Shown: in pieces, positions 10,601 through 55,065 of the stretch
Position numbering within the stretch: the stretch's first letter is position 1
Layout: each line of letters begins with the position of its first letter
Assembly (NCBI GenBank): GCA_963718515.1
Contig: OY970354.1
Coordinates: 302,363 to 366,362 of the forward strand
Length of the DNA stretch: 64,000 nt
Reading direction: 5' to 3'
Origin: an uncultured bacterium
GTDB lineage: Bacteria > Patescibacteriota > Minisyncoccia > UBA6257 > 2-01-FULL-56-20
Notes under the pieces: generated by a model
Databases searched by the model: none
Seen by the model: only the letters and a program-made list of their open reading frames with translations
Told to the model about the DNA's origin: nothing
Program-made: the position numbers and the translations under genes

Positions 10601-13430
10601 CGGTTACGGCGGTGGTGATTCAGATCCTCTTGCCTTAACCACTTCGATGCGCTGGGGCAATTGGGACAGTGTGACGAATGCAGTTCGCTGGTGCGGCAAC
10701 TCAAGCGATCCTGGTTGGTCTACCATTTGCGGTAGCAAATCGGAAGTGCCTTCAAATTTGGCAAGCCCCAATGCCGCGCTTTCCAATCCAGTGCCCAGTA
10801 CGACCTCTCTTCCACCCTCATTTTTCTTGCCCACGATAGCAACACCTGACGGCGGCACCGGATTGAATTGGTGGAAAGTCTGCACGGGCTGGACGAGCTT
10901 CCCGACTAATTGCGCAACGACCCAAACACAGCCGTTTCCAGCTATAGGTCCCGATGTCACGGGTGGTCCTTATAGCGGCGGCCATGCCTACGATATTCCT
11001 GCAGCACTCGCATGGGAAAATCTCCCTGTCGACCCCACATATCAGAGTTCCTACAGCATCACGGGATCTAGCTGGTCTGGAGGAACCGAAACGCTCACTA
11101 TCTCCAATCCTCCCAACCTTGAGCATCTCATGGGAGCATTTCAGTTGAGCGGGGTTAGTTCGGCCTGCACGGCAGGGGCAACGTTCAATGCAAATAACGA
11201 ACTCCTCATGACGGGCTCTTCCGCAACAAGTATCTCCTATGCCCTCGTCTCAAACCCCGGTTCCTGCAGCAGCGGCACCTTCAAGTTCCCTGATGTCAGG
11301 GAGTTCAATGAGGCAGTATATGAGAATGATCCGGCATCGGGAGGAGGTGATACCACCCCTCCCACCATCTCGGTTTCATCTCCGGCAAACAACGCCACCG
11401 TATCCTCGACCATCACCCTCTCCGGAACTGCTGCCGATAATGTGGCTGTAGCTTCGGTTGCCGTCTCAGTCGACGGGGGAGCATACCAATCTGCTGTAGG
11501 GACAACATCGTGGACATACTCTTTGAATACCACTTCGCTTTCAAACGGTACCCATACAATCATCGCAAGAGCCACCGACACCTCGGGGAATACCGGAATA
11601 TCATCAACCGTTACCATCACCGTAAACAATGCGTCAGGTCCCTCTGCTCCATCCATCACCTCCTCCCTCACGGCCAATGCCACAACGACCACAAGTTTCT
11701 CATATCAGATCACAGGATCCAACAGTCCCACCTCATACAATGCAACCGGCCTCCCCTCAGGCCTTTCCGTGAGTACCTCATCAGGTCTCATCTCGGGAAC
11801 TCCCACAGTAGCAGGGACATCGAACATCACAATCTCTGCCACAAATGCCGGAGGAACAGGAACCGCAACGCTTGTCCTCACGGTGCGTACCATCCCTGAT
11901 ACGACACCTCCCACCACAAGCATCACAAGCCCCGTGAACAATGCCACGGTCTCAAGCACAATCTCTGTCTTTGCCACAGCTTCCGACAATGTAGGCGTCT
12001 CTTACGTCGACCTCCTGGTCGACAACACGGTCGTCGCAACCGACACCACGAGTCCCTATACCTTCTCGCTCAACACCACAAGCTTCGCGAACGGCAGTCA
12101 TGTCATGTTTACCAAAGCTTACGATGCCGCAGGCAATGTCGGTTCTTCTGCCACCATATCGGTCACCGTATCCAACCCCGCAGAGACCCTGACCACGTCC
12201 CTCACGGCATCAAATGCATCAAGCGTCGCCCCGCTCACGACCTCCCTCACGGCATCCGCAGCAGGCACGGCCCAAGGCACGGTGAATTACATCTTCTATT
12301 GCAACAGGACTGATACGGGAACCAATATCACCTCTCCTGCAGACCTCACGGTGAATGCCGTGACAAGTACCTCCTACCTCGCCACAAATCTCTGCACCTA
12401 TGAGACCGCAGGATCATATACCGCAAAGGTCATCGTGGAGCGGGGAAGCGCTCCTCCTGCCCAAGCGCAAGAGGCGATCACGGTGTCTGCTGCACCGAGC
12501 TCAGGTGGTGGTGGAGGAGGCTCATCCGGTGGTGGTGGCGGAGGTGGCGGTTCTTCCGGCGGTGGTGGTGGAGGTTCCTCCTCGCCCCTCTTCACCGTCC
12601 ATACCATGGTCACGACCTCTACCCCGACATCGGCCAAGATCACGGTCATGACCTCCCTCCCCGCCCTCACCCAGCTCTTCTATGGCACCTCTCCCTCCTA
12701 TGGATCGACCACCCTCACCTCTCCTCTCCTTACGACCTCATACTTCAACCTGGAGAATCTCATCCCCGGCAAGACCTATTACGTAAAAGCCGTATCCCTT
12801 GCAGAGGGAGAGACGGAGTCAGCGAACATCACCTTCACCCCGGGGACCATGGCACCGATCGTCACGACCCCTCCTCCCTCCGCATCTTCTGCATCCCTCC
12901 CTCCCTTCATACGAAATCTCACGATCGGTTCCACGGGGTCAGATGTCTTAGAGCTTCAGCAGCTCCTGAACCAGTGGGGATACACGATCTCCCCCTCAGG
13001 ACCTGGTTCCCCCGGGCATGAGTCCTCCTATTTCGGTTCCCTTACCACGAAGGCAGTGCAGAAGTTCCAAGCGGCAGAAGGCATCTCCCCCGTATCAGGC
13101 TTCGTAGGGCCGCTCACGAGGGCAAAGCTGAACAGCCTCATCAACGCGGGAGGAACACAGACGACGACACCACCATCTCCTTCATCAGGCTCCCTCACAG
13201 AAAACCTTGCCCCTGGGAGTTCAGGACCACAGGTAGACACCCTCCAAAGCATCCTTGTCACGGACGGTTACCTTGCTCCCCAGTATGTCACCGGATACTA
13301 TGGATCCCTTACCGAGCAAGCAGTCGAAGCATTCCAGACTAAAGAAGGCATTGTCTCCTATGGGACGCCAAGCACGACTGGCTATGGTGCGGTGGGACCG
13401 AAGACAAGAGGGGAGCTGGATGGGATGTAG
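7647..13430 (+). CDS. giant surface protein (about 1928 aa): N-terminal module, FN3 x2, beta-helix-like core, Ig-like, He_PIG-like and PKD-like domains, poly-Gly linker, two PG-binding domains
   Basis: Continuous 5.8-kb ORF. The ORF track starts at 7596, but M18 (7647, MKRTKQLSLIALFLVALFLGF signal) avoids overlap with the upstream gene.
FN3-like repeats: PSVPTNLSANAISSSQINLSWTASTDNVGVTGYDIYRGG.
Ig-like repeats: DTTPPTISVSSPANNATVSSTITLSG.
He_PIG-like segment: GLPSGLSVSTSSGLISGTP.
Two C-terminal PG_binding_1-like repeats. Confidence 0.85.
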   Translation: MKRTKQLSLIALFLVALFLGFSYIPNIFSQKKTFAAGTPTIVQTCTGGNYGSTATCTLPSTLSANTTLVATGYSSGSGETLSISGCGLTWTKVFSDTASADFTWDVWTAPSTAGTSCTASQTIGGSQYNFINIAEVSGVNGLDAIPVDEHSPFCQTGCRSGSLTTNTNGDLVLFVGFLPSYSLTYSTFSNSYSIYQQNFFNSGGGSTSTNATAYILQGTAGNTSTTYNLSGATSYADSILIPFKSSGSGTPAIPPSAPTNLAVTTSTPTTVSLSWTASSAGTYSVAGYDIYQGSNQVGITSSTTYTVTGLSPSTGYTFSVYAYDSQSNSSPQSNSVNATTQAPIVDTTPPSVPTNLSANAISSSQINLSWTASTDNVGVTGYDIYRGGVQIGTSATNGYSDSGLAASTQYTYTVSAYDASGNNSAQSTSASATTQAKSSGGGTGPWSGVLTPSRAINWGNAGLPSTLIYGTGGSACNGSSANCTETVANPWTPPTRTQCGSTISPSGSAATNTSNINNALAACNPGTYVLLGPGTFTVNSSINFYTQNGVTLRGSGPQSTSITLTNAADVQMGAGYSYGLCGWTGGYAAGATSITLSNCSSAPHVGVLTTLAQCNTGFTGCGYANISGSNVSLYTAAPGSLFLNSWAGTQTMYFGSGTTWPGYPITAVQNGTSLTVSGGTPPSTFFYIGTPADNNGIFICGGVDGTCQRTDEGSEPTDLQQQIVMITSVSGSGPSYTATISPGLYMPNWNTSNNPSANWSTGAHTVTALGNGIEDMTIYNAYDGANESVQFNNSYGSWVKGVRLLGSGTYYPLVISGSKNSLVSNNYIFSDPFGDGQYPGAMQEQQDSDDLVLNNIMVSGTSWVGFGLMSGDVAAYNYGRDTFTSYPLDMFEHVPGDVYQLYEGNEVGTLQEDATHGTHDLNTAFRNYVPGYDVPYVAQGNPAGITWNPWDRFTNTVGNVIGNSAGLLNTYQSETQAAGGYIFSIGYGGGDSDPLALTTSMRWGNWDSVTNAVRWCGNSSDPGWSTICGSKSEVPSNLASPNAALSNPVPSTTSLPPSFFLPTIATPDGGTGLNWWKVCTGWTSFPTNCATTQTQPFPAIGPDVTGGPYSGGHAYDIPAALAWENLPVDPTYQSSYSITGSSWSGGTETLTISNPPNLEHLMGAFQLSGVSSACTAGATFNANNELLMTGSSATSISYALVSNPGSCSSGTFKFPDVREFNEAVYENDPASGGGDTTPPTISVSSPANNATVSSTITLSGTAADNVAVASVAVSVDGGAYQSAVGTTSWTYSLNTTSLSNGTHTIIARATDTSGNTGISSTVTITVNNASGPSAPSITSSLTANATTTTSFSYQITGSNSPTSYNATGLPSGLSVSTSSGLISGTPTVAGTSNITISATNAGGTGTATLVLTVRTIPDTTPPTTSITSPVNNATVSSTISVFATASDNVGVSYVDLLVDNTVVATDTTSPYTFSLNTTSFANGSHVMFTKAYDAAGNVGSSATISVTVSNPAETLTTSLTASNASSVAPLTTSLTASAAGTAQGTVNYIFYCNRTDTGTNITSPADLTVNAVTSTSYLATNLCTYETAGSYTAKVIVERGSAPPAQAQEAITVSAAPSSGGGGGGSSGGGGGGGGSSGGGGGGSSSPLFTVHTMVTTSTPTSAKITVMTSLPALTQLFYGTSPSYGSTTLTSPLLTTSYFNLENLIPGKTYYVKAVSLAEGETESANITFTPGTMAPIVTTPPPSASSASLPPFIRNLTIGSTGSDVLELQQLLNQWGYTISPSGPGSPGHESSYFGSLTTKAVQKFQAAEGISPVSGFVGPLTRAKLNSLINAGGTQTTTPPSPSSGSLTENLAPGSSGPQVDTLQSILVTDGYLAPQYVTGYYGSLTEQAVEAFQTKEGIVSYGTPSTTGYGAVGPKTRGELDGM
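12501..12585 (+). repeat. GGT/GGC-rich low-complexity tract encoding SGGGGGGSSGGGGGGGGSSGGGGGGSSS
   Basis: Seen directly in the sequence. An equivalent tract lies at the same relative position in the paralog (47059-47143). Confidence 0.9.
13222..13417 (+). repeat. 196-nt tract with 1 mismatch to 47801-47996 (3' ends of the two giant paralogs)
   Basis: Base-by-base comparison finds only 13406 A vs 47986 G differing. By eye the surrounding paralogous DNA is only about 75-80 percent identical. Confidence 0.9.
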
Positions 13431-42153: not shown

Positions 42154-45100
42154 ATGAAAAAACATCTCACCATTTTAGTTTTCGTTCTCGCTCTTGGGAT
42201 TTTCTCTCTCTCGCTCCCCAAAGCCTACGCCGCCATCACGCTTGTGGCCACGACCAGTGTCCAAAGCGGTACCACCCCCGCGATAAACACTAATGGCTCC
42301 TCGCTTATTGTCGTCGTCACCGCTTCTTATAGTGCGGCGGCGACCGTGACCGACAATATGGGCAATACCTGGTATGGATTGAACACGTATTATGCCTCTG
42401 ACAACAGCAGGTTTATAAAGATCTATTACGCTTACACTCCTCTTACCAGTCCGACCCAAACCTTCACCTGCGGGAGCAGTAATGGATTTGATTATCCGGC
42501 CTGTGTCGTGTCGGCATGGTCGGGAACAGCTACTACCTCCGCTGTCTTTGATACCCAGAACGGCTCTAGCAGTGCTAGCAATATAACTTCTTTGGGGATC
42601 GGATCCATTACCCCCGCTTCCACGAACGAACTGCTCATCGCAGGGTTCAGCGGTTCGACCTGTTTTACCGGAACCAATATGTCCATCAATTCCGGTTTTT
42701 CTATCTTTGGCACCGCAGGAGGCGCGTGTGGTAGTGGAGAGCTTGCGTACGGTGCCGACCTCTTGGATGCTAATACATCTGCGATTTCCCCAACATGGTC
42801 ATGGATGACTGCCAATGCCGGCAACGCAGCAACCATTGCCGCCTTCGCTCCCGCCTCAGGCGGCGGCTCCTCCACCTCGACCCCTGCCACCTCCACCCTC
42901 ACGCTCTCGAACGGGGGCAATGGCTCTGTCGTAAGTTCTCCCTCAGGCATCAATTGCGGAAGCACCTGCTCCATTGTTGTTAACAACGGCACCCAGGTGA
43001 CGCTGACTGCAACTCCTACCTCCGGCTACACCACAAGCTGGAGCAACTGCGGATCAACCACCAGTGGCAACACCTGTACCCTCACGATCAATGCGAATAG
43101 CACCGTAAGCGTCTCTTTTACTCCCCCTGACACCACTCCACCCTCCGTCCCTCCCAATCTTTCCGCAAATGCCATCTCTTCAAATCAAATCAACCTCTCT
43201 TGGACCGCCTCAACAGACAACGTAGGCGTCACCGGATACAAGATATATAGAGGAGGCACACAAATCGGCACCTCAGCCACTAATAGTTATACGGACTCAG
43301 GTCTCTCTGCATCCACCCTCTATACCTACACCGTATCCGCCTATGACGCCGCAGGCAACAACAGTGCCCAATCAACCTCTGCAAGTGCGACGACGGAGGC
43401 AAACAGTGGAAGCACCCCCACCGGTTCCTGGTCCAATATCCTCTCTCCCAATCGTGCCATCAACTGGTCAAGCGCGGGACTTCCCGCAACCTTCCCTGAC
43501 GGGGAGACCACGCCCAATCCCTGGACACCGCCTGCGAGGACGCAGTGTACTACGATCGCCCCGCTTGGTGGCGGCCAAGATGACGCTCCGCAAATTAAAA
43601 ACGCCGTCGCGGGATGTGCCGCGGGCACGTACGTCCTGCTCGACCCAGGAACGTTCACGATAGGATCCAGTTTATATCTTTCCCCGGGTTATACGTCCGG
43701 TCACAACAATGTCACAGTGCGCGGGAGTGGAGCGCAAGGCACTAAGTTACAGGTGGGTAGTGCAGGATCCATTAATATAGGCGCCGCGAGCGGCGGGGGA
43801 ACGGATACGCTTACATCAGGTTCCAACTATGCGCAGGGGAGCACTTCAGTGATTGTCACGGGCTCCCAACCGCCAGTAAACCAACCTGCCTGGTTCAGCC
43901 AGTGCGATACGGGTTACTCCGGATCGGGTTGCGCAACCGGATCAGCCGCAGATAATGGCGGCTTGTGGATCTGCGGTACGCAAACCATTTGCAGTAATCA
44001 AAGCGCGAATGGCAGCAACCATAACCATCAGCAACAAATTGTTCTTATAAAATCGGTCGTCAACAATGGCAATGGTACCTACGCCGTAACTTTCACCCCC
44101 GGCCTCTATATGCCGAACTGGTCGTATGCGCAAAGTCCCACCATGAGTTGGAACGATCCCACATATACCGCCATAGGTATGGGAATCGAGGACCTCACGG
44201 TTGATTTTACTTCCGGCAGTAACAACTACGGCTCTTTCGGATTTAACGAGGCGTACGCCTCGTGGGTCAAGGGGGTGCGATTCATCGGTCCGAGCGCCGG
44301 GAGTTGCTGCCAAATCACATTGGCCAATCTCAGCAAGTCTCTCTTCGCGAATAATTATACTTTTGATAATAATCCAGCAAATCTTTCCGGTGGAGGATTG
44401 ACGATCGCGTGGGGGAGCGACTCCGATGTGTTGATGATCAATAATCTCATGCAGGGCGGTGGCATCAACAGTATTGAGGGCACTGGCGACGATTCGGGAA
44501 ACGTTCTGGCCTACAATTATTCTCTCGACAATGTTACGAGCCAAGTGTATAACGGGGACGCCGAGCATTCGGCATCGCCGAACTTCATCCTGCGGGAAGG
44601 CAATGAGTTCGGAATGTCGGAGGACGATGCCACGTGGGGAACGCATGATTTCGATACTTGGTTTCGCAACTACTATTCCTGTGATGATCCGCCCTACTTG
44701 GGAGAGGCCGCCCCGCGCGGGATAGTTATCGATAACTACGCCCGGTTTGAAAACGCGATCGGTAACGCTCTTGGTGGTTCGAACGGATGCACGAGTTATC
44801 AAGGTTACGGCTCTTCGCCTTTTATTTTTGGATTTGGTGCCAGCGACCCGCTTGCACAAAGTACGGCCATGCGCTGGGGCAACTGCGATACAGTGACGGG
44901 AAGCTGCCGTTTCCAAAGTTCCGAAGTACCGGCATCGCTCAGCGGTAATGCGGCTCCCTTCGAAAACTCCGTTCCTTCCGTCGATACTTTACCCTGTTCG
45001 TTCTTTTTGCCCGGATATTCTTCACCGAATTGTACTCCTCATCCGGATGGCGGTACCGGCCTCAGCTGGTGGAAGATCTGCACCAATTGGACGACATTCC

Positions 45101-48009
45101 CCACCAATTGTGCCTCAAGCGAAACACAACCGTTTCCCGCGGTCGGTCCCGACGTATCGGGAGGGGCGCATGTGAATGGCCATGCGTATGATATTCCCGC
45201 GGCGATCGCATTCGGGAATCTTCCCATCGATCCCACGTATCAGAATTCATACAACATCACTGGCTCGAGTTGGTCGGGTGGGACGGAGACGCTGACCGTG
45301 AGCGGATTGCCCAGCGGCAGCGTTCACATCATGGGCGGTTTCCAACTCGCCGGAGTGTCCGCATCTTGTCTGCCAGCGAACGGCCTCTCATATACGGGAC
45401 GTCCCGATAATGAAGTATTGATGACGGGCTCTAATGTTGGGGTCGGGACCGTGAGCTACTCCCTTGCCTCGAACCCTGGCTCCTGCAGTGGAGGAACCTT
45501 CAAGTTTCCTGACATCCGCGAGTTCAACGAGGCGGTCTATGAGAATGATCCATCAAGCGGCGGAGGAGGCGACACCACCCCACCCACGATCTCGATATCT
45601 TCTCCTTCTAATGGTGCCACCGTCTCTTCGACCATCACCGTCTCTGGTATTGCGTCAGACAATGTTGCCGTCTCATCCGTATCCCTCTCAATTGACGGAG
45701 GGTCATATCAATCGGTATCCGGCACCACAAACTGGAATTACTCTCTGAATACCGCATCTCTCTCCAATGGCTCCCATACCCTGGTTGCAAAAGCCACCGA
45801 TTCATCAGGCAACACGGGTATCTCAGGAACCGTCACGATCACCGTGAACAACGCCTCCCCCGACGTGACCCCTCCCTCTGTCCCCACCGGCCTTGCCGCA
45901 TCAAACATCACGACCTCCACGATCTCTCTTGCATGGACCCAAAGCACCGATCCCACCGTGAATGGCCAGACGACCTCAGGCCTCGCAGGATACAGGATAT
46001 ATAGAGGGGGCGTGCAGGTGGGGACAAGCACCACAAATTCCTTCACGAACACTGGCCTTACCGCATCTACCACGTATTCCTACACCGTCTCCGCATATGA
46101 CAATGCAGGCAATGTCTCAAGCCAATCATCCGCCCTCCCAGTAAAGACGGGTTCTCCTTCGGATATGACGCCTCCCACGACCTCGATTACCTCTCCTCTC
46201 AACAACGCCACGGTATCAAGCACCATCACCGTTACTGCCTCTGCCTCAGACAACGTAGGCGTGGTCAAAGTTGAGTTCTACGTGGACAATGTTCTTCAAT
46301 CAAACGATACCGTATCTCCCTACACTTTCTCCCTCAATACGAACTCCCTTACGAATGGCACCCATTCCCTCATGACGAAAGCATATGATGCCGCAGGGAA
46401 TATCGGCAGCTCGGGCAATGTATCCGTTACGGTAGCCAACGTTCCCCAGACCCTGACCGCGTCTCTCCTTGCAACGCCTCTTACCGGCACTGCCCCCGTA
46501 ACTGTTTCGCTTACGGCATCAGCACTCGGCACCGCACAAGGTACCATCAATTACATCTTCTATTGCAACCGATCTGACACTGGCACCAATGTCACTTCTC
46601 CCGCAGACCTCACCGTGAATGCCACCAATCAGAATCCGTATGTCGCCACAAACCTGTGCAGTTACCAAACTGCAGGCACTTACACGACCAAGGTGATCGT
46701 CGAGCGGGGGAGTGCCCCGCCTGCAGAGGCGCAACAGGTCATCGTCGTCTCCGCGCCGATCACCTCGACATCGACCCCTCCGCTCATCTCGAGCGTCACC
46801 GTGAGCCAGATCACCGACACATCCGCACAGGTCGTCATTGTAACGACCGGGACATCTTCGCTTCAGCTCAACTACGGAACGAATACGAGTTATGGCATGA
46901 CCACGTCTGCCTCTCCCGAACTCACGACCACCTTCGTGAACCTCACGGGACTTACCCAAAGCACGATATACCACTTTGATGTCGCGGCAACCGTGCTTGG
47001 ATCAAGCACCCCCATCACGTCAGGAGACTTTTCCTTCACGACCCAGGCAACCCAGACGTCGGGCGGGGGAGGGGGTGGCACTTCTGGTGGCGGCGGTTCC
47101 GGCGGAGGTGGATCATCAGGTGGTGGTGGCGGTGGCGGTGGATACACCGCTCCCTTCACGGTCGGCATGGTCATCGTGACTTCCACTCCCACAACGGCAA
47201 AGATCATGGTCACGAACTCTCTCCCTGCCCTCACTCAGGTCTTCTATGGAACCTCTCTCTTCTATGGGTCTTCCACCCAGCAGTCTCCCATCCTTGCAAC
47301 TTCCTACTTCAATCTTGCTGGCCTCACTCCTGGCAAGACCTATGATGTAAAAGCCGTTTCTCTTGGTGCCGGTACCACGATCTCTTCCCCGAACCTCACC
47401 TTCATCCCTGGGGGAACGGTGAGCACCCCTCCCATCACAACGCCTCCTCCATCATCTGGCTCTTCTCTCCCCCTCTTCACAAGAAATCTCACGATCGGCT
47501 CCGTCGGCTCAGATGTAAAAGAATTGCAGATCCTTCTCAATCAGTGGGGATTCACAATCGCAAAGACAGGATCCGGTTCTCCCGGCAATGAATCCACCTA
47601 CTTTGGATCGCTTACCGCAAAAGCAGTCGCAGAGTATCAGGCGGCGAATGGCATCTCTCCCACCTCTGGATTCGTAGGATCCCTTACAAGGGCATCGCTC
47701 AACCAAAAGATCGGAGGGGGGACGACGACCCCTGTCGTGACGACACCATCTCCCACGACCACCAGTGGATCCATCACGACGAACCTCGCTCCCGGTGATG
47801 CAGGACCACAGGTAGACACCCTCCAAAGCATCCTTGTCACGGACGGTTACCTTGCTCCCCAGTATGTCACCGGATACTATGGATCCCTTACCGAGCAAGC
47901 AGTCGAAGCATTCCAGACTAAAGAAGGCATTGTCTCCTATGGGACGCCAAGCACGACTGGCTATGGTGCGGTGGGACCGAAGACGAGAGGGGAGCTCACC
48001 AGTTTATAG
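42154..48009 (+). CDS. giant surface protein (1951 aa), paralog of 7647-13430
   Basis: Continuous 5.9-kb ORF with a signal peptide (LTILVFVLALGIFSLSLPKAYA|A). It has the same domain order as the first giant protein: module, FN3, beta-helix-like core, Ig-like, an extra FN3, PKD-like, poly-Gly, and two PG-binding repeats. It lacks the He_PIG-like segment. Confidence 0.85.
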   Translation: MKKHLTILVFVLALGIFSLSLPKAYAAITLVATTSVQSGTTPAINTNGSSLIVVVTASYSAAATVTDNMGNTWYGLNTYYASDNSRFIKIYYAYTPLTSPTQTFTCGSSNGFDYPACVVSAWSGTATTSAVFDTQNGSSSASNITSLGIGSITPASTNELLIAGFSGSTCFTGTNMSINSGFSIFGTAGGACGSGELAYGADLLDANTSAISPTWSWMTANAGNAATIAAFAPASGGGSSTSTPATSTLTLSNGGNGSVVSSPSGINCGSTCSIVVNNGTQVTLTATPTSGYTTSWSNCGSTTSGNTCTLTINANSTVSVSFTPPDTTPPSVPPNLSANAISSNQINLSWTASTDNVGVTGYKIYRGGTQIGTSATNSYTDSGLSASTLYTYTVSAYDAAGNNSAQSTSASATTEANSGSTPTGSWSNILSPNRAINWSSAGLPATFPDGETTPNPWTPPARTQCTTIAPLGGGQDDAPQIKNAVAGCAAGTYVLLDPGTFTIGSSLYLSPGYTSGHNNVTVRGSGAQGTKLQVGSAGSINIGAASGGGTDTLTSGSNYAQGSTSVIVTGSQPPVNQPAWFSQCDTGYSGSGCATGSAADNGGLWICGTQTICSNQSANGSNHNHQQQIVLIKSVVNNGNGTYAVTFTPGLYMPNWSYAQSPTMSWNDPTYTAIGMGIEDLTVDFTSGSNNYGSFGFNEAYASWVKGVRFIGPSAGSCCQITLANLSKSLFANNYTFDNNPANLSGGGLTIAWGSDSDVLMINNLMQGGGINSIEGTGDDSGNVLAYNYSLDNVTSQVYNGDAEHSASPNFILREGNEFGMSEDDATWGTHDFDTWFRNYYSCDDPPYLGEAAPRGIVIDNYARFENAIGNALGGSNGCTSYQGYGSSPFIFGFGASDPLAQSTAMRWGNCDTVTGSCRFQSSEVPASLSGNAAPFENSVPSVDTLPCSFFLPGYSSPNCTPHPDGGTGLSWWKICTNWTTFPTNCASSETQPFPAVGPDVSGGAHVNGHAYDIPAAIAFGNLPIDPTYQNSYNITGSSWSGGTETLTVSGLPSGSVHIMGGFQLAGVSASCLPANGLSYTGRPDNEVLMTGSNVGVGTVSYSLASNPGSCSGGTFKFPDIREFNEAVYENDPSSGGGGDTTPPTISISSPSNGATVSSTITVSGIASDNVAVSSVSLSIDGGSYQSVSGTTNWNYSLNTASLSNGSHTLVAKATDSSGNTGISGTVTITVNNASPDVTPPSVPTGLAASNITTSTISLAWTQSTDPTVNGQTTSGLAGYRIYRGGVQVGTSTTNSFTNTGLTASTTYSYTVSAYDNAGNVSSQSSALPVKTGSPSDMTPPTTSITSPLNNATVSSTITVTASASDNVGVVKVEFYVDNVLQSNDTVSPYTFSLNTNSLTNGTHSLMTKAYDAAGNIGSSGNVSVTVANVPQTLTASLLATPLTGTAPVTVSLTASALGTAQGTINYIFYCNRSDTGTNVTSPADLTVNATNQNPYVATNLCSYQTAGTYTTKVIVERGSAPPAEAQQVIVVSAPITSTSTPPLISSVTVSQITDTSAQVVIVTTGTSSLQLNYGTNTSYGMTTSASPELTTTFVNLTGLTQSTIYHFDVAATVLGSSTPITSGDFSFTTQATQTSGGGGGGTSGGGGSGGGGSSGGGGGGGGYTAPFTVGMVIVTSTPTTAKIMVTNSLPALTQVFYGTSLFYGSSTQQSPILATSYFNLAGLTPGKTYDVKAVSLGAGTTISSPNLTFIPGGTVSTPPITTPPPSSGSSLPLFTRNLTIGSVGSDVKELQILLNQWGFTIAKTGSGSPGNESTYFGSLTAKAVAEYQAANGISPTSGFVGSLTRASLNQKIGGGTTTPVVTTPSPTTTSGSITTNLAPGDAGPQVDTLQSILVTDGYLAPQYVTGYYGSLTEQAVEAFQTKEGIVSYGTPSTTGYGAVGPKTRGELTSL
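47059..47143 (+). repeat. GGN-rich low-complexity tract encoding SGGGGGTSGGGGSGGGGSSGGGGGGGG
   Basis: Seen directly in the sequence. It is the counterpart of 12501-12585. Confidence 0.9.
47801..47996 (+). repeat. 196-nt tract with 1 mismatch to 13222-13417
   Basis: See 13222-13417. Confidence 0.9.
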
Positions 48010-48250
48010 AGGAAGAGAAAGGGCCGCTATAATAGCGACCCTCCGAATTTCTTAGTTCGTTATATTTCTCGCGAAGTTCCAGATATCGCTTTCGTTCCAA
48101 GAAGAATTGTTTTCCGAGCTCACAGCCGGAATGTTCATCGCGGGCATCATCCTTCATCTTGGTGCTGATGAATCTGATGAGCACCGAATCCTGCCTGCCC
48201 GTCGCCCTCACTTCAATGGTATCTCCGAGGAGCAGGGAACAATTGGCCAA
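47996..48250 (-). CDS. hypothetical small protein (84 aa from a TTG start)
   Basis: ORF with no ATG start. The weak ...LLLGDTIEVRATG...VLIRFI pattern is reminiscent of swapped-hairpin/AbrB- or CsrA-like beta strands. It abuts the left end of the island. Confidence 0.25.
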   Translation of the reverse strand: MANCSLLLGDTIEVRATGRQDSVLIRFISTKMKDDARDEHSGCELGKQFFLERKRYLELREKYNELRNSEGRYYSGPFSSSINW

Positions 48251-48344: not shown

Positions 48345-48610
48345 TGCTCATCTGGCGGACGTAGCACGAACGTATTTTATGGCAAATTCCTGATCATTTT
48401 ACCCCTTCAAATACCCCTTCAATTGCCCTGAGTCAATTTGAAGGGGTAGCAAGTCCAGATCGGCCTGAAAACACTGGCCTTTCTGACCCTCACCTCCCAA
48501 AATTCAAAGTCCTACTTCACTCCGCTAGACCCCTTCCGAAATGGTGTGCTCAGCCCCTCGGTCTGCTGACCTCGGGGCTTCGCGTATGGCGCGCCCAAAT
48601 TCCTCCCCCA
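48345..48610 (+). repeat. IR1-L: 266-bp inverted repeat, apparently identical to the reverse complement of 51776-52041
   Basis: Compared block by block and no mismatch was seen. The outer end is tgctcatctggcgg and the inner end is ...aattcctccccca. Confidence 0.9.
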
Positions 48611-48824
48611 ACCCCTCCTTTGGGGCGCGCAGAGGTGGTAGTTCCACGTTTCGCGACCCTATTCCTGTCTGGTGGGAAAATCCTACGTCTTGTGTGTCTG
48701 ACCCTCCAGAAAGCGGTTTCTTGCCCTTGCCCCAGCCCTCCCATTGCGCGGGCAAGAGGCGATCTAGCTCCCTCAAAATTCGGTTTACCAAAAGGGTCTT
48801 TTTCTGATAACATAAAAGGTAATC

Positions 48825-50576
48825 ATGGCCATAACTCCATCACGGCAAACCGTCGAACAACTTCTAAATATTGGCAACGCCCGCTTTTTGGTTCCATCCT
48901 ACCAGCGCGGTTTTGATTGGGGTAAAGACGAAGCAGATGACTTATGGAATGACGTTATCTCATCCGATCAGGGAATATACTTAGGCAATATTGTCCTCGA
49001 TGTCGAAAATATGAATCGCGGCGAGATATCTATCGTCGATGGCCAACAGAGGATAACAACTATTTGTTTATTACTTATTGCGTGTCGTGCGAGGGCAATC
49101 GCCATAAAAGAAAACAAGCTCGCTAGTAAGATTACGGAAAAGTTAACTTTTAGCGATTCTACTACTGGTGAAATGACGGGAGCAAGGTTGGGCGCATCAA
49201 TGGCAGTGCGTGATATTTTTGAGTACATCATCAGGGACGATTGGAAAGGAGACTTTCCTACGAAGTTGGGAAAGAAATTCGTTAAGCGGCAGATTAATAA
49301 GATCAAACCCGTATATGAATTATTCCGTGAGCGGGTATCGTCGCTTAAGAAGCTTGAAGATATATCAACTTTGTTGAAAAAGCTTTACGGATCGTTTGTT
49401 ATTAAGATAGATGTCGATGGCGATCTTGATGTATTCGATCTTTTTGAAAGAGCGAATGCGCGTGGCCTGGAACTTAATGCAGCCGATCTTTTAAAGGCAG
49501 ATCTCTTCTCCGCCGAAATTGAGGGTATCGAGGAAACGTGGGATGAAATAGTGGAAAACGCAGATACCACAATGATGAGAATGTTGAAATATTACCTGGT
49601 CGCCAGGAAGGGAGCCGTCCAAAAGAAAGATATTTTCAAAAATCTCCAAAGGCAATCTTCGGAACTCAAGCCAGATGTTTTTGTAAAAGACCTCAGTGAT
49701 TTTTCTGCCTTTTATGCCATCTTGCGGGAGGGACGAGAAGAAGATCTAAGAAGTTATTTCGAAGCGAATGGGTGTTTGGGAATCTCTAGAAATCAACATT
49801 ATTGCCACGATATTTATTCAAGTATCGAAGCCTTAAGGCTTTTCCGTGTTACGCAACCTTACCCGATTATTTATTCGGCCGTAAAAGCATATCAGGAAAA
49901 ATATGGGGATAACGCTGAAATGGCGAAGTTGCTTAGGTCTCTTATAGAAACCTTCGAGAAATACCATTTCGTTAACAATGTCATTTGTGAGCGTGTGGGT
50001 AACGAAATCGAGAAAACATATATGGACTTCGCTCCGAAATTTAACAATGCAAAGGATTTTAAAAAGAATTGCAGCGAACTTATTAAGATCCTTCAAGACA
50101 AGAAGGCTAGTTATGAAGAGTTTGAGCCTAATTTCAAAGAACTTTCATATAGCACCTCTGCCGACCTACCACTTATCAGTTACGTTATTGACCGCATAAA
50201 TAACTTTGATAGAGTAGGTGGACAAAAAACACAGCTATTTTTCTTGGACAGAAAAGGATTTAGGCGAAGTTTTAATGTTGAGCATTTTTATCCAGACTCT
50301 AAACGGGGAGAATTGCCTGATCCTGATATAGCTGATAATATCGGAAACTTGCTAATTATTAGCTTACATACAAACTCGAAGCTGCAAGCTAAAATGCCGC
50401 TTGAAAAAATAGAGATACTAAAGAATAAAGAAAGTTTTGCTAACTTACCGCATGTTAAAACTTTTATCGAGGAATTTGAGAATCACATTAAGACTAAGGG
50501 TTGGGGATCGGACGAGATAGCCATGAGAGCTGTCAAATTAGCTCACGGCGCTTACTACAAAGTTTGGCATTTTTAG
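48825..50576 (+). CDS. DUF262 + DUF1524 (GmrSD-like) nuclease-family protein
   Basis: N-terminus has FLVPSYQRGFDWGKDEADDLWNDV and IVDGQQRITT (DUF262/ParB-like DGQQR motif). C-terminus has FNVEHFYP...IGNLLIISLHTNSKL (His-Me/DUF1524-like). Confidence 0.75.
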   Translation: MAITPSRQTVEQLLNIGNARFLVPSYQRGFDWGKDEADDLWNDVISSDQGIYLGNIVLDVENMNRGEISIVDGQQRITTICLLLIACRARAIAIKENKLASKITEKLTFSDSTTGEMTGARLGASMAVRDIFEYIIRDDWKGDFPTKLGKKFVKRQINKIKPVYELFRERVSSLKKLEDISTLLKKLYGSFVIKIDVDGDLDVFDLFERANARGLELNAADLLKADLFSAEIEGIEETWDEIVENADTTMMRMLKYYLVARKGAVQKKDIFKNLQRQSSELKPDVFVKDLSDFSAFYAILREGREEDLRSYFEANGCLGISRNQHYCHDIYSSIEALRLFRVTQPYPIIYSAVKAYQEKYGDNAEMAKLLRSLIETFEKYHFVNNVICERVGNEIEKTYMDFAPKFNNAKDFKKNCSELIKILQDKKASYEEFEPNFKELSYSTSADLPLISYVIDRINNFDRVGGQKTQLFFLDRKGFRRSFNVEHFYPDSKRGELPDPDIADNIGNLLIISLHTNSKLQAKMPLEKIEILKNKESFANLPHVKTFIEEFENHIKTKGWGSDEIAMRAVKLAHGAYYKVWHF

Positions 50577-50650
50577 ATAATATCCGCAGATGAAGTATTC
50601 CGCTTATGTTAGGAAAGGTCGGAGAATAAAAAATAGTAGCAAATTATATT

Positions 50651-50875
50651 ATGAGTATTGACCCAAGAGAACGCGAACGCTTAATGCGCGATCTCAAAAA
50701 TTTACAAGCAACACGAGACCAATTTGTTCGCTCAAGGGATAGGGAAAGAGACCTAGCAAAACATTATGGTAGCGATCACCCTACGGCAAAGATTGCCGAG
50801 AGGCAGGTGAAGGATTATGAGGAAAAAATCTCAAGGTTGGACAGAGAAATTTCTGCCATCACATCCCGTCTATAA
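50651..50875 (+). CDS. hypothetical 74-aa charged coiled-coil protein
   Basis: R/E/D-rich heptad-like sequence. No known motif. Confidence 0.5.
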   Translation: MSIDPRERERLMRDLKNLQATRDQFVRSRDRERDLAKHYGSDHPTAKIAERQVKDYEEKISRLDREISAITSRL

Positions 50876-50883
50876 TTCTTTTT

Positions 50884-51732
50884 ATGGCCGGATCAAATGA
50901 CAAAAAGAGCAACCTCGGACTATTCGCCGCCGTCTTTGCGGCGATTTTCGGCACAAGTTATGGGATTTTTTCGATTGGTAAGAACTTGAAAAATCGTGGC
51001 GCGGCGATGGAACAAGCCATCGGCGAGGCAGAGAAACTCTTTCAAAAGGGAATGACCGAAGATGAGATATTTAATGCCTTCTGCGCCGATGCCGCGCGGC
51101 AGACTAAGAGAAGCGTGAATGATGGCGAGATAAGAGACAAGGTGAGAAGTGTAGTGTCGGAAGCGAAGAAGCGATTTGAAGCGGGTGGCGCGGTAGTTTC
51201 TATAAGCGGCTCATTATCCTCGCCGAGCGACCTTGACGGCTCTATCAAAACTATAATGCTTGCCCTTCAGAACGCCCTTCAAAAATCGCAACCGACTTTG
51301 AAATTTGATGATCTTTATGCGAAGGCAAAAGAAGCCGAAGCGAAGAACGACATGAGTGATTTTCAGGTATTCATTCAGAATCAGGAATATGATACGACGG
51401 CCGTTTGGAAGATATGGATGGACGTTGAGCAGAAGCTCAATCAGACGACGTATTTTTTCGATAGTTCAGAGCCAGAGAACGTGCGAAGCAAGCGAGAGGA
51501 GATGGCGAAGCTCAACAGCTTGCCGAATACCTTTAAGAATCTCCTTGTAACGCGCGGCCACGTCCTGCGCCATGTACGAACGATGTATAACGGGAAGAAC
51601 AAGCGCGAGGAAACAAAGAAACATGAGGCCGATGAACTCAAGGTGCTTATGAAGCTGTTTCAGAACGACATTGACCGCGTAACGGCGGAGATGGATGTCT
51701 TTAACAAGACGATGGAGAAGCTTCAAACTTAA
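50884..51732 (+). CDS. hypothetical 282-aa protein with an N-terminal TM helix and helical/coiled-coil body
   Basis: LGLFAAVFAAIFGTSYGIFSIG is a TM segment. The remainder is charged and helical. No known motif. Confidence 0.55.
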   Translation: MAGSNDKKSNLGLFAAVFAAIFGTSYGIFSIGKNLKNRGAAMEQAIGEAEKLFQKGMTEDEIFNAFCADAARQTKRSVNDGEIRDKVRSVVSEAKKRFEAGGAVVSISGSLSSPSDLDGSIKTIMLALQNALQKSQPTLKFDDLYAKAKEAEAKNDMSDFQVFIQNQEYDTTAVWKIWMDVEQKLNQTTYFFDSSEPENVRSKREEMAKLNSLPNTFKNLLVTRGHVLRHVRTMYNGKNKREETKKHEADELKVLMKLFQNDIDRVTAEMDVFNKTMEKLQT

Positions 51733-51775
51733 TCAGAGAAAAAATTTCACGGCCATGCGGCCATGAGCTATTTTG

Positions 51776-52041
51776 TGGGGGAGGAATTTGGGCGCGCCAT
51801 ACGCGAAGCCCCGAGGTCAGCAGACCGAGGGGCTGAGCACACCATTTCGGAAGGGGTCTAGCGGAGTGAAGTAGGACTTTGAATTTTGGGAGGTGAGGGT
51901 CAGAAAGGCCAGTGTTTTCAGGCCGATCTGGACTTGCTACCCCTTCAAATTGACTCAGGGCAATTGAAGGGGTATTTGAAGGGGTAAAATGATCAGGAAT
52001 TTGCCATAAAATACGTTCGTGCTACGTCCGCCAGATGAGCA
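51776..52041 (-). repeat. IR1-R: inverted copy of 48345-48610
   Basis: See IR1-L. Confidence 0.9.
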
Positions 52042-52139
52042 GCTATAAAACTTAGGTTGGTTTCAGAAAAATTCACGCGCGCTTCGCGGAGCGAAGCGTA
52101 AGGTGGGGTGGGGGTAAATTCGATACGACGGTTGTTAAG
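52037..52139 (+). repeat. IR2-L: 103-bp inverted copy of the tRNA-Asn 3' end plus downstream flank (54841-54943), 4 mismatches
   Basis: The reverse complement aligns with 54841-54943. Mismatches are at 54846, 54858, 54879 and 54882. It overlaps IR1-R by the 5 nt GAGCA. Confidence 0.85.
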
Positions 52140-52175
52140 AAAGAGATTCGAGCCGAAGATTTTTTGGAGGGAGGT

Positions 52176-52760
52176 CTAACCAACTTGCCTAATCCAATCC
52201 CGAATGTACATGCCGACTCTCTCGATATCCGTTGGAGCAAGTTCGCCGCCGTGCATGATGATGTTGCGCGACTTCTCAAGCGTTGTGATAATTTGTTTAG
52301 CCCACTCAATATTGTCGATGTGTATCTGAAAGAATTTCCAATTTTGCTCACTGCCCATAATTGAGATGAGATCACCAAAATCAGTGTAGTAGATTGGAGA
52401 TGCGCCACGTGGGGTAAGCCATCTGACTCCACTTTCTTCCTTTTTTCTATTTTCTGCCTTTTGTCGGATCTTAGAATTTACAGATTTTGTCCACCAGTCC
52501 GCTTTCTTTTCCTCTAGAAGTTTTTTCTCAATAAATTCCCGCACGGTATTTTCAAACGCACAAATTGCGGTATAGACAACCGCCATTCTGCGTGATTTCG
52601 CTACTAAATCTTCATCTAGCAAAGGGATACCAAGTCGTTTTGCCGCCTCTGCTTCCCACTTTTCGGTAAAGTTTCTCTTGCCGAGATGCCCTGCTTTTTC
52701 TAGGGCAATTTCGGTCAATAAACCACGGAGACCGAACGAATAGAGTAGGTCATCTTTCAT
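52176..52760 (-). CDS. HEPN-domain protein (Swt1-like HEPN, tentative)
   Basis: The C-terminal RNIIMHGG fits the HEPN R-x4-6-H motif. An upstream FENTVREF segment is also present. 194 aa. Confidence 0.6.
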   Translation of the reverse strand: MKDDLLYSFGLRGLLTEIALEKAGHLGKRNFTEKWEAEAAKRLGIPLLDEDLVAKSRRMAVVYTAICAFENTVREFIEKKLLEEKKADWWTKSVNSKIRQKAENRKKEESGVRWLTPRGASPIYYTDFGDLISIMGSEQNWKFFQIHIDNIEWAKQIITTLEKSRNIIMHGGELAPTDIERVGMYIRDWIRQVG

Positions 52761-52763
52761 TGT

Positions 52764-53405
52764 TTACAATAAATGTCGGCGCAAGCTCTTGAAAATAGCG
52801 TCATAAACCGACTCGTCGCGCGACTCAGGAAGGTGGATTTGAATATTGTAATGGAACTGGGCACTCGATGGTTTTTTGGATTCTAATTCCGCCTCTTCCT
52901 CTTTTTCTTTCAATGACTGAGGTGGTTCTGGCTCATTCTTTTTTTGCTCAACTTTTGGTTTCGTTATTGGTGTTTTCTTTGCAGTCCAATCGGCATATTC
53001 AACAAGTGCTTTGAAAGTGCTTGCCATCTTTGTAAGTACTGACTCTGAATACTTACCCTGCGTTAGGACGCGCAATTTATTTTTGACCTCTGTTGCGGAG
53101 AGTTCGTTTGCCTTTGTGTTTACGGAAAATAAATCGCCGTATGCTTCTTCTACTGCTTCGGCAAGGACTTTCTTCGATTCTGACTGATCGAGGAAACGAA
53201 AATACCTCTCTGTGGGAACTGCGTTAGCGTCCAAGAAACCGAGCCCCTTGAGCACTGGAATATACAAACGATCATTTGTACTCTTAAATCCGAGTCCTTC
53301 TATAAACCTTTGAGTAAAGGCGTTGGGGGCTTTTGCGGTAATAAGGCTGTCGAAGAATGATTTTACATTCTTGACGCTCACGAGATATGAAGGGATTAGA
53401 GCCAT
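52764..53405 (-). CDS. partner protein of the HEPN gene (DUF5343-like, tentative)
   Basis: 213 aa, with its stop 3 nt before the HEPN start. N-terminal ...FTQRFIEGLGFKSTNDRLYIPVLKGLGFLD..AVPTERY and C-terminal ...IQIHLPESRDESVYDAIFKSLRRHL resemble DUF5343, recalled from memory. Confidence 0.45.
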   Translation of the reverse strand: MALIPSYLVSVKNVKSFFDSLITAKAPNAFTQRFIEGLGFKSTNDRLYIPVLKGLGFLDANAVPTERYFRFLDQSESKKVLAEAVEEAYGDLFSVNTKANELSATEVKNKLRVLTQGKYSESVLTKMASTFKALVEYADWTAKKTPITKPKVEQKKNEPEPPQSLKEKEEEAELESKKPSSAQFHYNIQIHLPESRDESVYDAIFKSLRRHLL

Positions 53406-53472
53406 GTTAGGTAAAAGCTATCTTTAGTTCCATTATACCCCTAAGGATGCGGCAAAACAAGTCAAACTGCGG

Positions 53473-53478
53473 TAAAAT
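53473..53478 (+). promoter_or_regulatory. -10 box (TAAAAT) 6 nt upstream of the recombinase ATG
   Basis: The sequence is gcggTAAAATacaactATG. Confidence 0.35.
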
Positions 53479-53484
53479 ACAACT

Positions 53485-55065
53485 ATGCGCTACTTCCTCT
53501 ATGCCCGCAAAAGCACCGACGTTGAAGACAAGCAAGTTTTGAGCATCGAAGCCCAACTTGTAGAACTCCGCGAACTCGCCAGAGACGAGCATATTGAGAT
53601 AGCCGAAGAACTCGTCGAGAAAAAATCCGCCAAGATGCCTGGCCGCCCCGTCTTCAACGAAATGCTACGTCGAATAGCTAAAGGCGAGGCTAAAGGCATC
53701 ATCTGTTGGAAACTAGATCGTCTAGCCCGCAATCCCGTGGACGGCGGCCAGGTCAGCTGGATGCTCCAGCAGGGAATGATTGAGCATATCCTCATGCCAG
53801 ATAAGAGCTACCGCCCGACCGATAACGTTCTTATGATGTCCGTCGAATTCGGCATGGCCAACCAGTTTATTCGCGATCTCAGTTCTAATACGAGTAGAGG
53901 ACTGCGACAAAAAGCGCGACACGGGGATTTTCCTGGCACTGCTCCCGTCGGGTATCTGAATGATGTCCGAGCTAAAACGATTGTCGTTGATCGCCGCAAG
54001 TCTAAAGCTATTAAAGCCGCCTTTGAATTGTATGCGCTAGGCAAATCCCGTCTTGAAGACATATCAAAATTTCTTTTCGAGCAGGGCGTCAAAAGCACGA
54101 ACGGCAACCCGCTCCATAAGGACAGGGTTCGCTTCATTCTAGCCAATCCGTTTTATTACGGCGTATTCATGTATAAGGGCGAAACCTACAAAGGCCGCCA
54201 TACTCCGCTTATCGAGAAGCGTCTTTGGGACAAGGTTCAGCAGGTGCTCGTTGATCGCGGCCATCCGCAGAAAACGACGAGTGATCCGAAACCGTTTTGC
54301 GGTTTGCTTCATTGCGGCGAGTGCGGCCGCATGATCACCGCCGAGGTTCAGAAAGGACACACCTATTATCGTTGTACCAAGAAAGGAACGGCTTGTTCCC
54401 AGCCATACGTCCGCGAGGAGGTTTTGACTGCCGATCTATCCAATATACTTTCAGAGTTCGCCATGCCCGAAGCTATCGCATCAGAGCTTACGAAAAAGAA
54501 CGAAGAAGACGAGGCTGTATCCACTCAAAAAGCGTCGGCGTTCGCTCAAGAGTTGCGTACAAAGGTTCAGGACTTTTCCCGCAACCTCGACCGACTTACC
54601 GATCTCTATGTAGCTCAGGATATTGACCGAGAGGACTACCTTTCCCGCCGTCGCAAGCTCCTTTCGGAAAAGCGGTCAGTCGAGGAGCAGATAGCCCGTC
54701 TTGAGCGAAACGCCTCCGTATGGCTCGAACCAATGCGAGAATGGATAAAAGACGCGTCATTGCTTACCTTAGTGGCAACCAATGACGACTTAAATGCCAA
54801 AAAGGCCTCCCTACAAAAAATCTTCGGCTCGAACATACTTCTTAAAAACCGTCGTATTGAATTTACCCCCACCCCACCATATGCTTCGCTCCGCGAAGCG
54901 CGCGTGAATTTTTCTGAAACCAACCTAAGTTTTATAGCTGCTCCGCGACCAGGACTCGAACCTGGAACCATCGCCTTAACAGGGCGCCGCTCTACCATTG
55001 AGCTATCGCGGAATACGAATAGTATTCTAACAGACGGGGAAATATTTTCAATAGCCGCTTTTTAA
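53485..55065 (+). CDS. large serine recombinase (resolvase/invertase N-domain + recombinase domain + zinc ribbon + coiled coil); the ORF runs through IR2-R and antisense across tRNA-Asn
   Basis: YARKSTDVEDKQVLSIEAQ (catalytic Ser context), ICWKLDRLARN, CGLLHCGECGRMITAEVQKGHTYYRCTKK (zinc ribbon). The last ~70 codons are encoded by IR2-R and the antisense tRNA, so the true C-terminus is uncertain. Confidence 0.8.
   Translation: MRYFLYARKSTDVEDKQVLSIEAQLVELRELARDEHIEIAEELVEKKSAKMPGRPVFNEMLRRIAKGEAKGIICWKLDRLARNPVDGGQVSWMLQQGMIEHILMPDKSYRPTDNVLMMSVEFGMANQFIRDLSSNTSRGLRQKARHGDFPGTAPVGYLNDVRAKTIVVDRRKSKAIKAAFELYALGKSRLEDISKFLFEQGVKSTNGNPLHKDRVRFILANPFYYGVFMYKGETYKGRHTPLIEKRLWDKVQQVLVDRGHPQKTTSDPKPFCGLLHCGECGRMITAEVQKGHTYYRCTKKGTACSQPYVREEVLTADLSNILSEFAMPEAIASELTKKNEEDEAVSTQKASAFAQELRTKVQDFSRNLDRLTDLYVAQDIDREDYLSRRRKLLSEKRSVEEQIARLERNASVWLEPMREWIKDASLLTLVATNDDLNAKKASLQKIFGSNILLKNRRIEFTPTPPYASLREARVNFSETNLSFIAAPRPGLEPGTIALTGRRSTIELSRNTNSILTDGEIFSIAAF
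54841..54943 (-). repeat. IR2-R: tRNA-Asn 3' end (3 nt) plus 100-bp downstream flank, repeated in inverted orientation at 52037-52139
   Basis: See IR2-L. It contains the hairpin gcttcgc-tcc-gcgaagc. Confidence 0.85.
54941..55012 (-). tRNA. tRNA-Asn (GUU)
   Basis: The minus strand reads TCCGCGATAGCTCAATGGTAGAGCGGCGCCCTGTTAAGGCGATGGTTCCAGGTTCGAGTCCTGGTCGCGGAG. The acceptor stem is perfect, the anticodon loop is CTGTTAA, the discriminator is G73, and CCA is not encoded. Confidence 0.9.

Follow-up and report, generated by a model that had tools for sequence, protein, structure and literature searches.

A probable serine-recombinase defence island at the 3' end of a Patescibacteria tRNA-Asn gene, with a second, inverted attP site inside the element

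Organisation of the locus

The window analysed here is the whole 64,000-nt stretch taken from contig OY970354.1 of an uncultured Patescibacteria bacterium, and within it positions 48345-54943 carry the marks of a tRNA-associated defence island: one end lies at a tRNA 3' end, an integrase gene of the large serine recombinase (LSR) type adjoins it, the cargo is of the defence kind, and the composition is deviant, the GC content dropping from 0.55-0.57 in the flanks to 0.39-0.49 within the element. Taken as one explanation, we consider it probable that this segment is an integrated mobile defence island of about 6.6 kb, inserted by the LSR at the extreme 3' end of tRNA-Asn, that its outer junctions S1 and S3 are attL and attR, and that its internal junction S2 is a spare, inverted attP.

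Two long inverted repeats (IR1 and IR2) give the element its form. The arms of IR1 (48345-48610 and 51776-52041) are 266 nt long, 100% complementary and 3165 nt apart, and the sequence between them is called segment X (48611-51775, 3165 bp). The arms of IR2 (52037-52177 and 54803-54943) are 141 nt long and 93% complementary, with 10 scattered differences (at 52098-52175 versus 54805-54882), and they lie 2625 nt apart around segment Y (52178-54802, 2625 bp), which carries the recombinase. The two repeats overlap at 52037-52041 in exactly GAGCA, and TGCTC stands at both 48345-48349 and 54939-54943. Such a 5-nt overlap by itself means little; the 266- and 141-nt repeats are far beyond chance. The features, named with the P and P' arms of attP and the B and B' arms of attB, are as follows.

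48345..48349, minus strand: S3 core GAGCA, putative crossover region of attR, at the element's left end; the P arm ends there, and the homologous P arm of the closest relative, L004, ends at the same TGCTC
48345..48610, minus strand: P arm, attR copy (IR1 left arm), with P half-site GTTCGT at about -23 and boxes TACCCCTTCAA and AAGTCCTACTTCACTCCGCT
48611..48824, plus strand: conserved non-coding stretch from the P arm to the first cargo gene
48825..50576, plus strand: GmrSD-type restriction endonuclease in segment X (GmrSD_N 1.6e-32, GmrSD_C 1.2e-8)
50651..51732, plus strand: two cargo open reading frames (ORFs) of 74 and 282 amino acids (aa) in segment X, without family match
51776..52041, plus strand: P arm, internal copy (IR1 right arm), half of S2, 100% complementary to 48345-48610
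52037..52041, plus strand: S2 core GAGCA, centre of the putative intact, inverted internal attP
52037..52177, plus strand: P' arm, internal non-coding copy (IR2 left arm), with a GC hairpin at 52081-52097
52176..52760, minus strand: Swt1-like HEPN protein in segment Y (HEPN_Swt1, 1.3e-12)
52764..53405, minus strand: DUF5343 protein in segment Y (1.2e-44)
53485..55065, plus strand: large serine recombinase in segment Y, functional part probably to about 54939
54803..54943, minus strand: P' arm, attL copy (IR2 right arm), encoding the final ~45 recombinase codons, with a hairpin at 54883-54899
54939..54943, minus strand: S1 core GAGCA, putative attL crossover region at the tRNA 3' end
54940/54941-55012, minus strand: tRNA-Asn(GTT), called by ARAGORN and Rfam; the B half-site is made up of its T-arm and acceptor 3' strand
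55024..55051, minus strand: promoter-like site upstream of tRNA-Asn, TTGAAA-16-TAGAAT with TG (consensus match only)

The GAGCA at S1 consists of the last 3 nt of tRNA-Asn followed by CA, and transcription of the tRNA from the promoter-like site would converge with the recombinase gene. No replication-related family was matched among the six element ORFs.

Anatomy of the three junctions

A first-pass annotation of the window had described three junctions around a GAGCA core with swapped arms, and all three strings were found exactly as written: S1 at 54950-54932 (minus strand), S2 at 52028-52051 (plus strand) and S3 at 48358-48336 (minus strand). The left arm that it assigned to S2 and S3 in common is IR1, at the full length and identity given above. 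The 103-bp repeat that it placed between S2 and S1 is real, as IR2, but longer and imperfect: identity is complete over no more than the first 61 nt from the core and breaks at 62, 65, 86 and 98 nt, with more mismatches further in. The proposal that arm swapping round a short core points to site-specific recombination was borne out, with S1 and S3 fitting attL and attR; the hybrid character it had given to S2 belongs to S1 and S3 instead, S2 being P-core-P' and hence of the parental attP type. A short common crossover with arm-swapped attL and attR hybrids, as is typical of LSRs, is thus present in the three GAGCA junctions.

Read in tRNA-sense orientation, S1 would be attL, with the tRNA half-site in B-core-P', S3 would be attR (P-core-B'), and S2 would be a complete second attP (P-core-P') lying inverted, on the opposite strand, inside the element. 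Integration would have used the attP copy that overlaps the recombinase 3' end and left the spare copy intact. Two inverted attP copies, of which one is consumed, produce swapped, duplicated and inverted arms, which explains the layout that had appeared puzzling at first, with arms duplicated and inverted rather than exchanged once. The attB before insertion would have read tRNA, GAGCA and AAAGAGGAC; an exact search of JGI metagenomes for the empty site GGTCGCGGAGCAAAAGAGGAC gave 0 matches, a result that is uninformative because the collection holds no close relative. Single-stranded folding that would give a duplex attP, of the sort known from CTX phage and integron attC sites, was also considered and set aside by inference, as it misfits the double-strand cleavage of serine recombinases.

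The identity of the IR1 arms (100%) and their sharp ends would also suit chimeric or fold-back joins made during assembly, and many short-read contigs do break at such repeats. We regard an artefact of this kind as practically negligible, given the 10 scattered differences in IR2, the recurrence of the same layout in closed long-read genomes and about 100 independent assemblies, and independent unitigs from the same sample in which X and Y are each connected to the repeats at either end. In ERR11630394 (Logan, k=31), the unitigs L002 (segment X) and L003 (segment Y) stop inside the repeats at both ends, as expected if the two ends of each segment join the same repeat in opposite orientations; these unitigs came from exact-protein look-ups, are short, and confirm the repeats while being incapable of revealing alternative junctions. 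L003 shows a few recombinase differences from window positions 53600-54200 (e.g., CCTCGCAGCC versus CCTGGCCGCC, and ACGAAGG versus ACAAAGG), indicating more than one strain of the element in the sample.

The recombinase and its C-terminal tail

The recombinase contains the Resolvase (PF00239, 2.3e-19), Recombinase (PF07508, 2.2e-14) and Zn_ribbon_recom (PF13408, 1.3e-9) domains. R8 and the catalytic S10 are invariant among 40 homologues, as are cysteines C272, C277, C280, C297 and C304 of the zinc ribbon; the closest solved structure is that of the SPbeta integrase (9dxh), matched over residues 6-391. LSR directionality is governed by a coiled-coil insertion within the zinc-ribbon domain; in this recombinase charged, heptad-like sequence is abundant in residues ~320-420.

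The reading frame has no stop ahead of the core and runs for ~41 further codons on the antisense strand of tRNA-Asn to 55065, while the same ORF fused to the P arm, as in a circle, would stop after 14 codons (HLADVARTYFMANS, then the stop). The C-terminal tail of the recombinase therefore depends on the integration state, and homologue lengths of 489-694 aa are consistent with such a tail. In the final recombinase codons, 45-65 nt from the core, lies a GC-rich hairpin whose stem sequence varies by locus with pairing kept (GCTTCGC/GCGAAGC, GACGC/GCGTC, GGCGC/GCGCC and GATGCGC/GCGCATC). No recombination directionality factor (RDF), which LSRs need for excision, was recognised; these are diverse proteins for which no systematic search was made, and the minimal relatives, with the recombinase alone in Y and variable cargo in X, show no conserved small gene.

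Conservation of the layout among relatives

A search with the recombinase returned 6382 homologues at E <= 1e-20, and the 164 closest loci were fetched; their recombinases are 47-93% identical, nearly all are labelled Patescibacteria or Candidate Phyla Radiation (CPR), and closed long-read chromosomes are included. Among the 122 loci with an intact recombinase 3' end, 91 adjoin a called tRNA (15 isotypes) and another 14 a T-arm-like end missed by ARAGORN, belonging to an intron-bearing tRNA-Asn or a transfer-messenger RNA (tmRNA), which brings the integrated loci to 105. The recombinase points at the tRNA or tmRNA end in 105/105 and away from it in none. Upstream of the recombinase an inverted P' arm (115-175 nt) is present in 68 of the 81 integrated loci with enough sequence (84%), and where at least 3 kb more is available, an adjoining inverted P-arm repeat (95-290 nt) follows in 16 of 27.

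Eight cleanly measured relatives with unrelated cargo, analysed by the same routine and not counting the window, have overlaps of 3-6 nt (GAGC, CAC in four, TCAC, CGCAC and TCACCA). Overlaps of 16 and 28 nt were found in two other loci and gaps of 45 and 142 nt in two more; 5 of the 16 P-arm loci are unmeasurable, the arm running off the locus edge, and L064 gave 8 nt in one measurement and ran off the edge in the other. The first-pass annotation had named repeat boundaries that move as more copies are aligned as grounds for refutation; the outcome favours its reading, the boundary being fixed at the tRNA 3' end in every cleanly measurable relative. Three-site layouts occur in the closed long-read chromosomes L013 and L076, and cargo is hardly ever common to two loci. 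Judged from these alignments, the layout is a family trait and no artefact.

The uniform orientation also bears on a two-segment inversion switch of the shufflon or P1 C-segment kind, in which the recombinase, or RecA working on the long arms, would flip X (S3-S2) and Y (S2-S1), a flipped Y placing the recombinase downstream of the tRNA promoter, with a 'circle-type' C-terminus, and turning excision on. As in an invertase system, S3 and S2 flank X, S2 and S1 flank Y, and the sites are inverted; the three cores, alternating in orientation, mark the outer limits of long inverted repeats whose arms stay nearly identical. As the element now lies, the tRNA promoter faces the recombinase gene, the ORF tail is set by whichever arm context follows, and a flipped state could be transient and thus invisible in consensus assemblies. 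We nonetheless consider such a switch unlikely. A flipped Y was seen in 0 of the 105 integrated loci (consensus assemblies), X keeps the same orientation between L052 and L055, where all of it can be compared, and between the window and L004, where only a 203-nt stretch by the attR-side arm can be, and in studied LSRs attP does not react with attL or attR, while attP x attP recombination is poor (PMC3556126, PMC11722253).

Several loci depart from the usual tRNA neighbourhood. The ends in L013, L020, L090, L093, L095 and L133 match the 3' half of tRNA-Asn and probably belong to genes with group I introns, for which ARAGORN calls none (intron-containing tRNA-Asn was compared with PMC13011429), and L066, L068, L156 and L136 form a tmRNA group, the tmRNA being called in L066. 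At L036:1674-2560 a recombinase fragment 96% identical to that of the window, covering residues 3-275 only, adjoins a tRNA-Gln 3' end and could be the product of a deletion or of aberrant recombination.

Site recognition and crossover

The motif GTTC[GAT]A, with distances counted back from the first shared base, starts most often at -19 in the tRNA arms, where it is the T-loop, and at -23 in the P arms (82 loci), so that the P arm mimics the tRNA T-arm (GTTCGA) 4 bp further out. In studied LSRs the DBD2 motifs of attP stand 5 bp further out than those of attB (PMC11722253), and the offset of the distal (DBD2/ZD) motif here, 4 bp against the published 5 bp, comes close to LSR half-site geometry. 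The recombinase would thus recognise the universal tRNA T-arm, and this mimicry accounts for the wide range of tRNAs used within one family; the B' arms show no conservation across loci. If L017 is comparable, the 2-bp crossover lies within GAGC. A single crossover dinucleotide for all relatives was rejected, as GAGC and CAC have none in common.

The closest relative and the conserved arms

L004 is the closest relative, with a recombinase 93% identical to that of the window, the same tRNA-Asn and a syntenic right flank. Its element (3838-11462; also represented by L005) carries a methyltransferase, a ResIII helicase, a helix-turn-helix (HTH) protein and a 222-aa protein in place of the GmrSD, HEPN and DUF5343 genes of the window element. 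It retains a partial inverted P arm only, the internal core and P' copy having been lost. Positions 48611-48813 of the window, a unique, GC-rich, non-coding stretch of ~200 nt, are 91% identical to L004:4233-4436 on the same side of unrelated cargo, and this conserved stretch (48611..48824) may be a cargo promoter or leader. The left flanks share nothing within the window's 48 kb. In the window that flank includes 42154-48009, encoding a 1951-aa secreted repeat protein with Ig/fibronectin-like repeats, a Gly-rich linker and C-terminal peptidoglycan-binding-like repeats, which ends ~340 nt before the element's left end; an 84-aa ORF without family match (47996-48250, minus strand) lies between the two.

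Arms are far more alike within an element than between elements. Over the first 90 nt from the core, P' arm pairs within elements show ~99% identity, and IR1 identity within relatives' elements is mostly 97-100%, falling to 77-81% in L013, L054 and L127, while P-arm identity between the window and L004 is only 83-89%. Differences of ~1% within an element against 11-17% between the window and L004 P arms mean that the copies are homogenised within the element, an identity probably maintained by gene conversion.

The P arm also contains conserved internal boxes. Three 11-nt boxes of the type TACCCCTTCAA stand at 48400-48410 and 48412-48422 as direct repeats and at 48438-48448 in inverted orientation, with the internal copy at 51938-51986; among relatives of the tRNA-Asn subfamily the three co-vary (CCCCAGCAT, CCCCTACAT and CCCCATCAT), and a 20-nt box, AAGTCCTACTTCACTCCGCT at 48507-48526, is highly conserved in the P arms of the same subfamily. 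These boxes look like accessory protein-binding sites, which would be unusual for LSR att sites. A 12-bp RNA stem in the P arm was tried as an alternative and is better explained by the co-varying DNA boxes just described; the arms contain no Rfam family but the tRNA. In one clade the non-coding P' copy has an insertion of ~10 nt (consensus TTTGAATTTT; L008, L009, L015, L019, L021, L025, L033, L035, L042, L048, L052, L055, L058 and L061) that splits GGTTCGAGCC, which is the antisense of the invariant FGSN codons and also a copy of the T-arm-like motif, and in another clade the P' repeat terminates exactly at GGTTCGAGCC.

Arm identity of this kind could also mark a relic with no function: the recombinase 3' end together with attP would have been duplicated in inverted orientation long ago, and the copies would persist since inverted repeats cannot delete each other and gene conversion keeps them alike. 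Gene conversion does homogenise inverted duplicates such as tufA/tufB, L004, L010, L039 and L044 lack the spare copy with the recombinase intact, and the recombinases of L013, L054 and L127 are likewise intact beside an IR1 that has diverged. A relic is nevertheless rather improbable in our view, as it sits poorly with 84% retention across recombinases 47-93% identical, 15 tRNA targets and unrelated cargo, with a nearly fixed inner boundary of the P' arm, and with conserved, co-varying accessory boxes on the spare P arm.

Excision and the predicted circle

The identity and arrangement of the three sites, the conservation of their layout and the homogenisation of arms are read directly from the alignments, and from them we infer excision by S1 x S3 to a two-attP circle. 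It would yield a circle of ~6594 bp with two inverted attP sites, in which a 402-bp inverted repeat would separate X from Y. In eight contigs (L014, L016, L111, L112, L114, L116, L148 and L163) the recombinase is followed by a P arm in place of a tRNA. In L112 and L114 an inverted attP lies on either side of the recombinase, and L148 begins inside the upstream P' arm and ends in register, a 194-nt repeat core closing a 5.5-kb circle. The eight contigs fit the predicted circle and are suggestive of it.

One of them, L114, contains a three-site chain with diverged arms (637-11372) that runs P-core-P', recombinase, inverted P'-core-P, a 7-kb segment and P-core followed by an arm of uncertain type, and that adjoins a tRNA-Thr on the other strand, which suggests that arm-bounded modules can be concatenated or rearranged. 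Such a chain might also be taken for side-by-side transposon-like units, Y being like an insertion sequence (IS) with 141-bp terminal inverted repeats and X a non-autonomous unit with 266-bp terminal repeats; the inverted arms do bound each unit and end at a core, Y in many relatives is just the recombinase between arms, and the contigs L135, L155 and L163 consist of one unit with both arms. We find this very unlikely. Serine recombinases acting on inverted sites produce inversion, not excision, every Y seen adjoins either a P arm or the end of a tRNA or tmRNA gene, the outer arm at the tRNA-side junction is always the tRNA, as attP x attB integration predicts, and single-unit contigs are the usual assembler output at repeats.

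Role of the spare attP

Within the LSR-island explanation, we tentatively read the spare attP as an integrase-binding control module and not as a routine crossover partner. The site with its accessory boxes would regulate recombinase or cargo expression, or excision, and in the window S2 lies upstream of the recombinase, where the X and Y gene sets converge. The A118 integrase gives no recombination between attP and either attL or attR, and attP x attP proceeds at <5% of the normal rate (PMC3556126); the SPbeta integrase synapses two attP sites unproductively (PMC11722253). This canonical LSR chemistry argues against routine crossing-over at S2, and the invariant orientation of Y against both free flipping and the use of either copy for integration. 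Integration through either attP copy was rejected for the same reason, the recombinase invariably pointing at the tRNA. A more active part for the spare attP is quite unlikely in our estimate: as a cis-element that would include its accessory boxes and hairpins, its bound integrase could join attL and attR in a three-site complex or invert the recombinase segment, letting a lone LSR choose between excision and integration free of an RDF. If true, this would be a new mode of regulating LSR directionality, widespread in CPR bacteria.

Between S2 and the recombinase start, relatives have an extended -10 promoter (TGnTATAAT) and a structured leader of ~95 nt. The leader was aligned in at least 22 relatives (alignment A4; L148:186-283, L083:353-450, L082:9879-9976, L014:1586-1683 and 18 more) and folds into three helices arranged as a pseudoknot, with strong covariation. 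Pairing holds in 90% of cells, compared with 32-47% when the alignment is slid as a control; 16 pairs have both partners changed, and none of 500 shuffles reached the observed values. The leader has no Rfam match, is absent from the window's own element, and is a candidate for a new cis-regulatory RNA. The S2 P arm was also considered as the recombinase promoter and is unlikely to act as such: the relatives have their own promoter and leader, and in the window two opposite-strand genes lie between.

Several observations weigh against the explanation we favour or parts of it. No RDF was identified, so that excision stays a prediction, and neither an empty attB (searched in JGI metagenomes) nor an excised circle of the window's own element was found. 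The eight attP-type contigs could be assembler walks through the collapsed identical arms of an integrated copy. The left flank is non-syntenic with L004, so B' was assigned by logic and not by comparison. Of the 81 integrated relatives, 13 (e.g., L004) are without the spare copy and have an intact recombinase, which makes the copy dispensable, at least in the short term. The relatives' own recombinase promoter and leader mean that S2 is not simply a recombinase promoter, and a terminated antisense RNA from S2 against the recombinase 3' end is not supported, a scan for a hairpin plus T-run at the inner arm end finding it in 2 of 121 loci.

Significance and comparison with known systems

CPR/Patescibacteria are very difficult subjects for genetic work, and little has been reported on their mobile elements. 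An LSR that inserts defence cargo at many tRNA 3' ends would show how small CPR genomes acquire and swap defence genes, and the window and L004, with 93%-identical recombinases at the same site and wholly different cargo, illustrate such a swap. The recombinase family offers candidate integration tools for CPR organisms. A second attP, long arms with accessory repeats and an ORF that runs across its own crossover depart from the view of serine integrases as acting on a simple 50-bp site, and together they make RDF-free control of directionality a testable idea. No description of this three-site layout was found in the searchable literature.

The element resembles phiC31, Bxb1, A118 and SPbeta SprA in its domain set, in a short core with unrelated arms, and in an attP beside the integrase gene. 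In contrast to these systems, its targets are the 3' ends of many tRNA or tmRNA genes, recognised through the T-arm, its integrase ORF contains the attP within its 3' end, its arms are long (140-350 nt) and bear accessory repeats as well as hairpins, an inverted second attP is conserved, and no RDF was recognised. With tRNA islands and P4-like prophages, which use tyrosine integrases, it shares the tRNA 3' end, the adjoining integrase and low-GC defence cargo; it differs in having a serine recombinase, in a common sequence of only 3-6 nt where those elements have a direct repeat of 15-50 nt that restores the tRNA, and in an internal inverted attP that has no counterpart there.

Two further systems share its geometry. 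The yeast 2-micron plasmid has FLP sites inside 599-bp inverted repeats that divide a ~6.3-kb circle into two unique segments, and the predicted ~6.6-kb circle, with a 402-bp inverted repeat holding the recombinase's own site, would look much the same; here, however, the recombinase is of the serine type, there are no replication genes and no sign of flipping, and the element is integrated in the chromosome. The P1 C-segment and Mu G-segment (Cin, Gin) and the shufflons rely on small invertases that work with an enhancer, and their segments commonly occur either way round. They are alike in having crossover sites at the outer ends of long inverted repeats around a segment of a few kilobases, with an adjoining serine recombinase, whereas the enzyme here is an LSR, only one orientation of Y is seen, and the outer sites are also the ends of a mobile element.

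In the phages with integration-dependent immunity of Broussard et al. 2013, attP reportedly lies within a gene and integration alters the C-terminus of the encoded protein, a repressor, the enzyme being a tyrosine integrase. The likeness is the crossover inside an ORF; in the present element it is the recombinase's own tail that would change between the integrated and excised states. Collectively, the element is a member of the LSR family by its domains, crossover anatomy and half-site geometry, and a defence island by its context.

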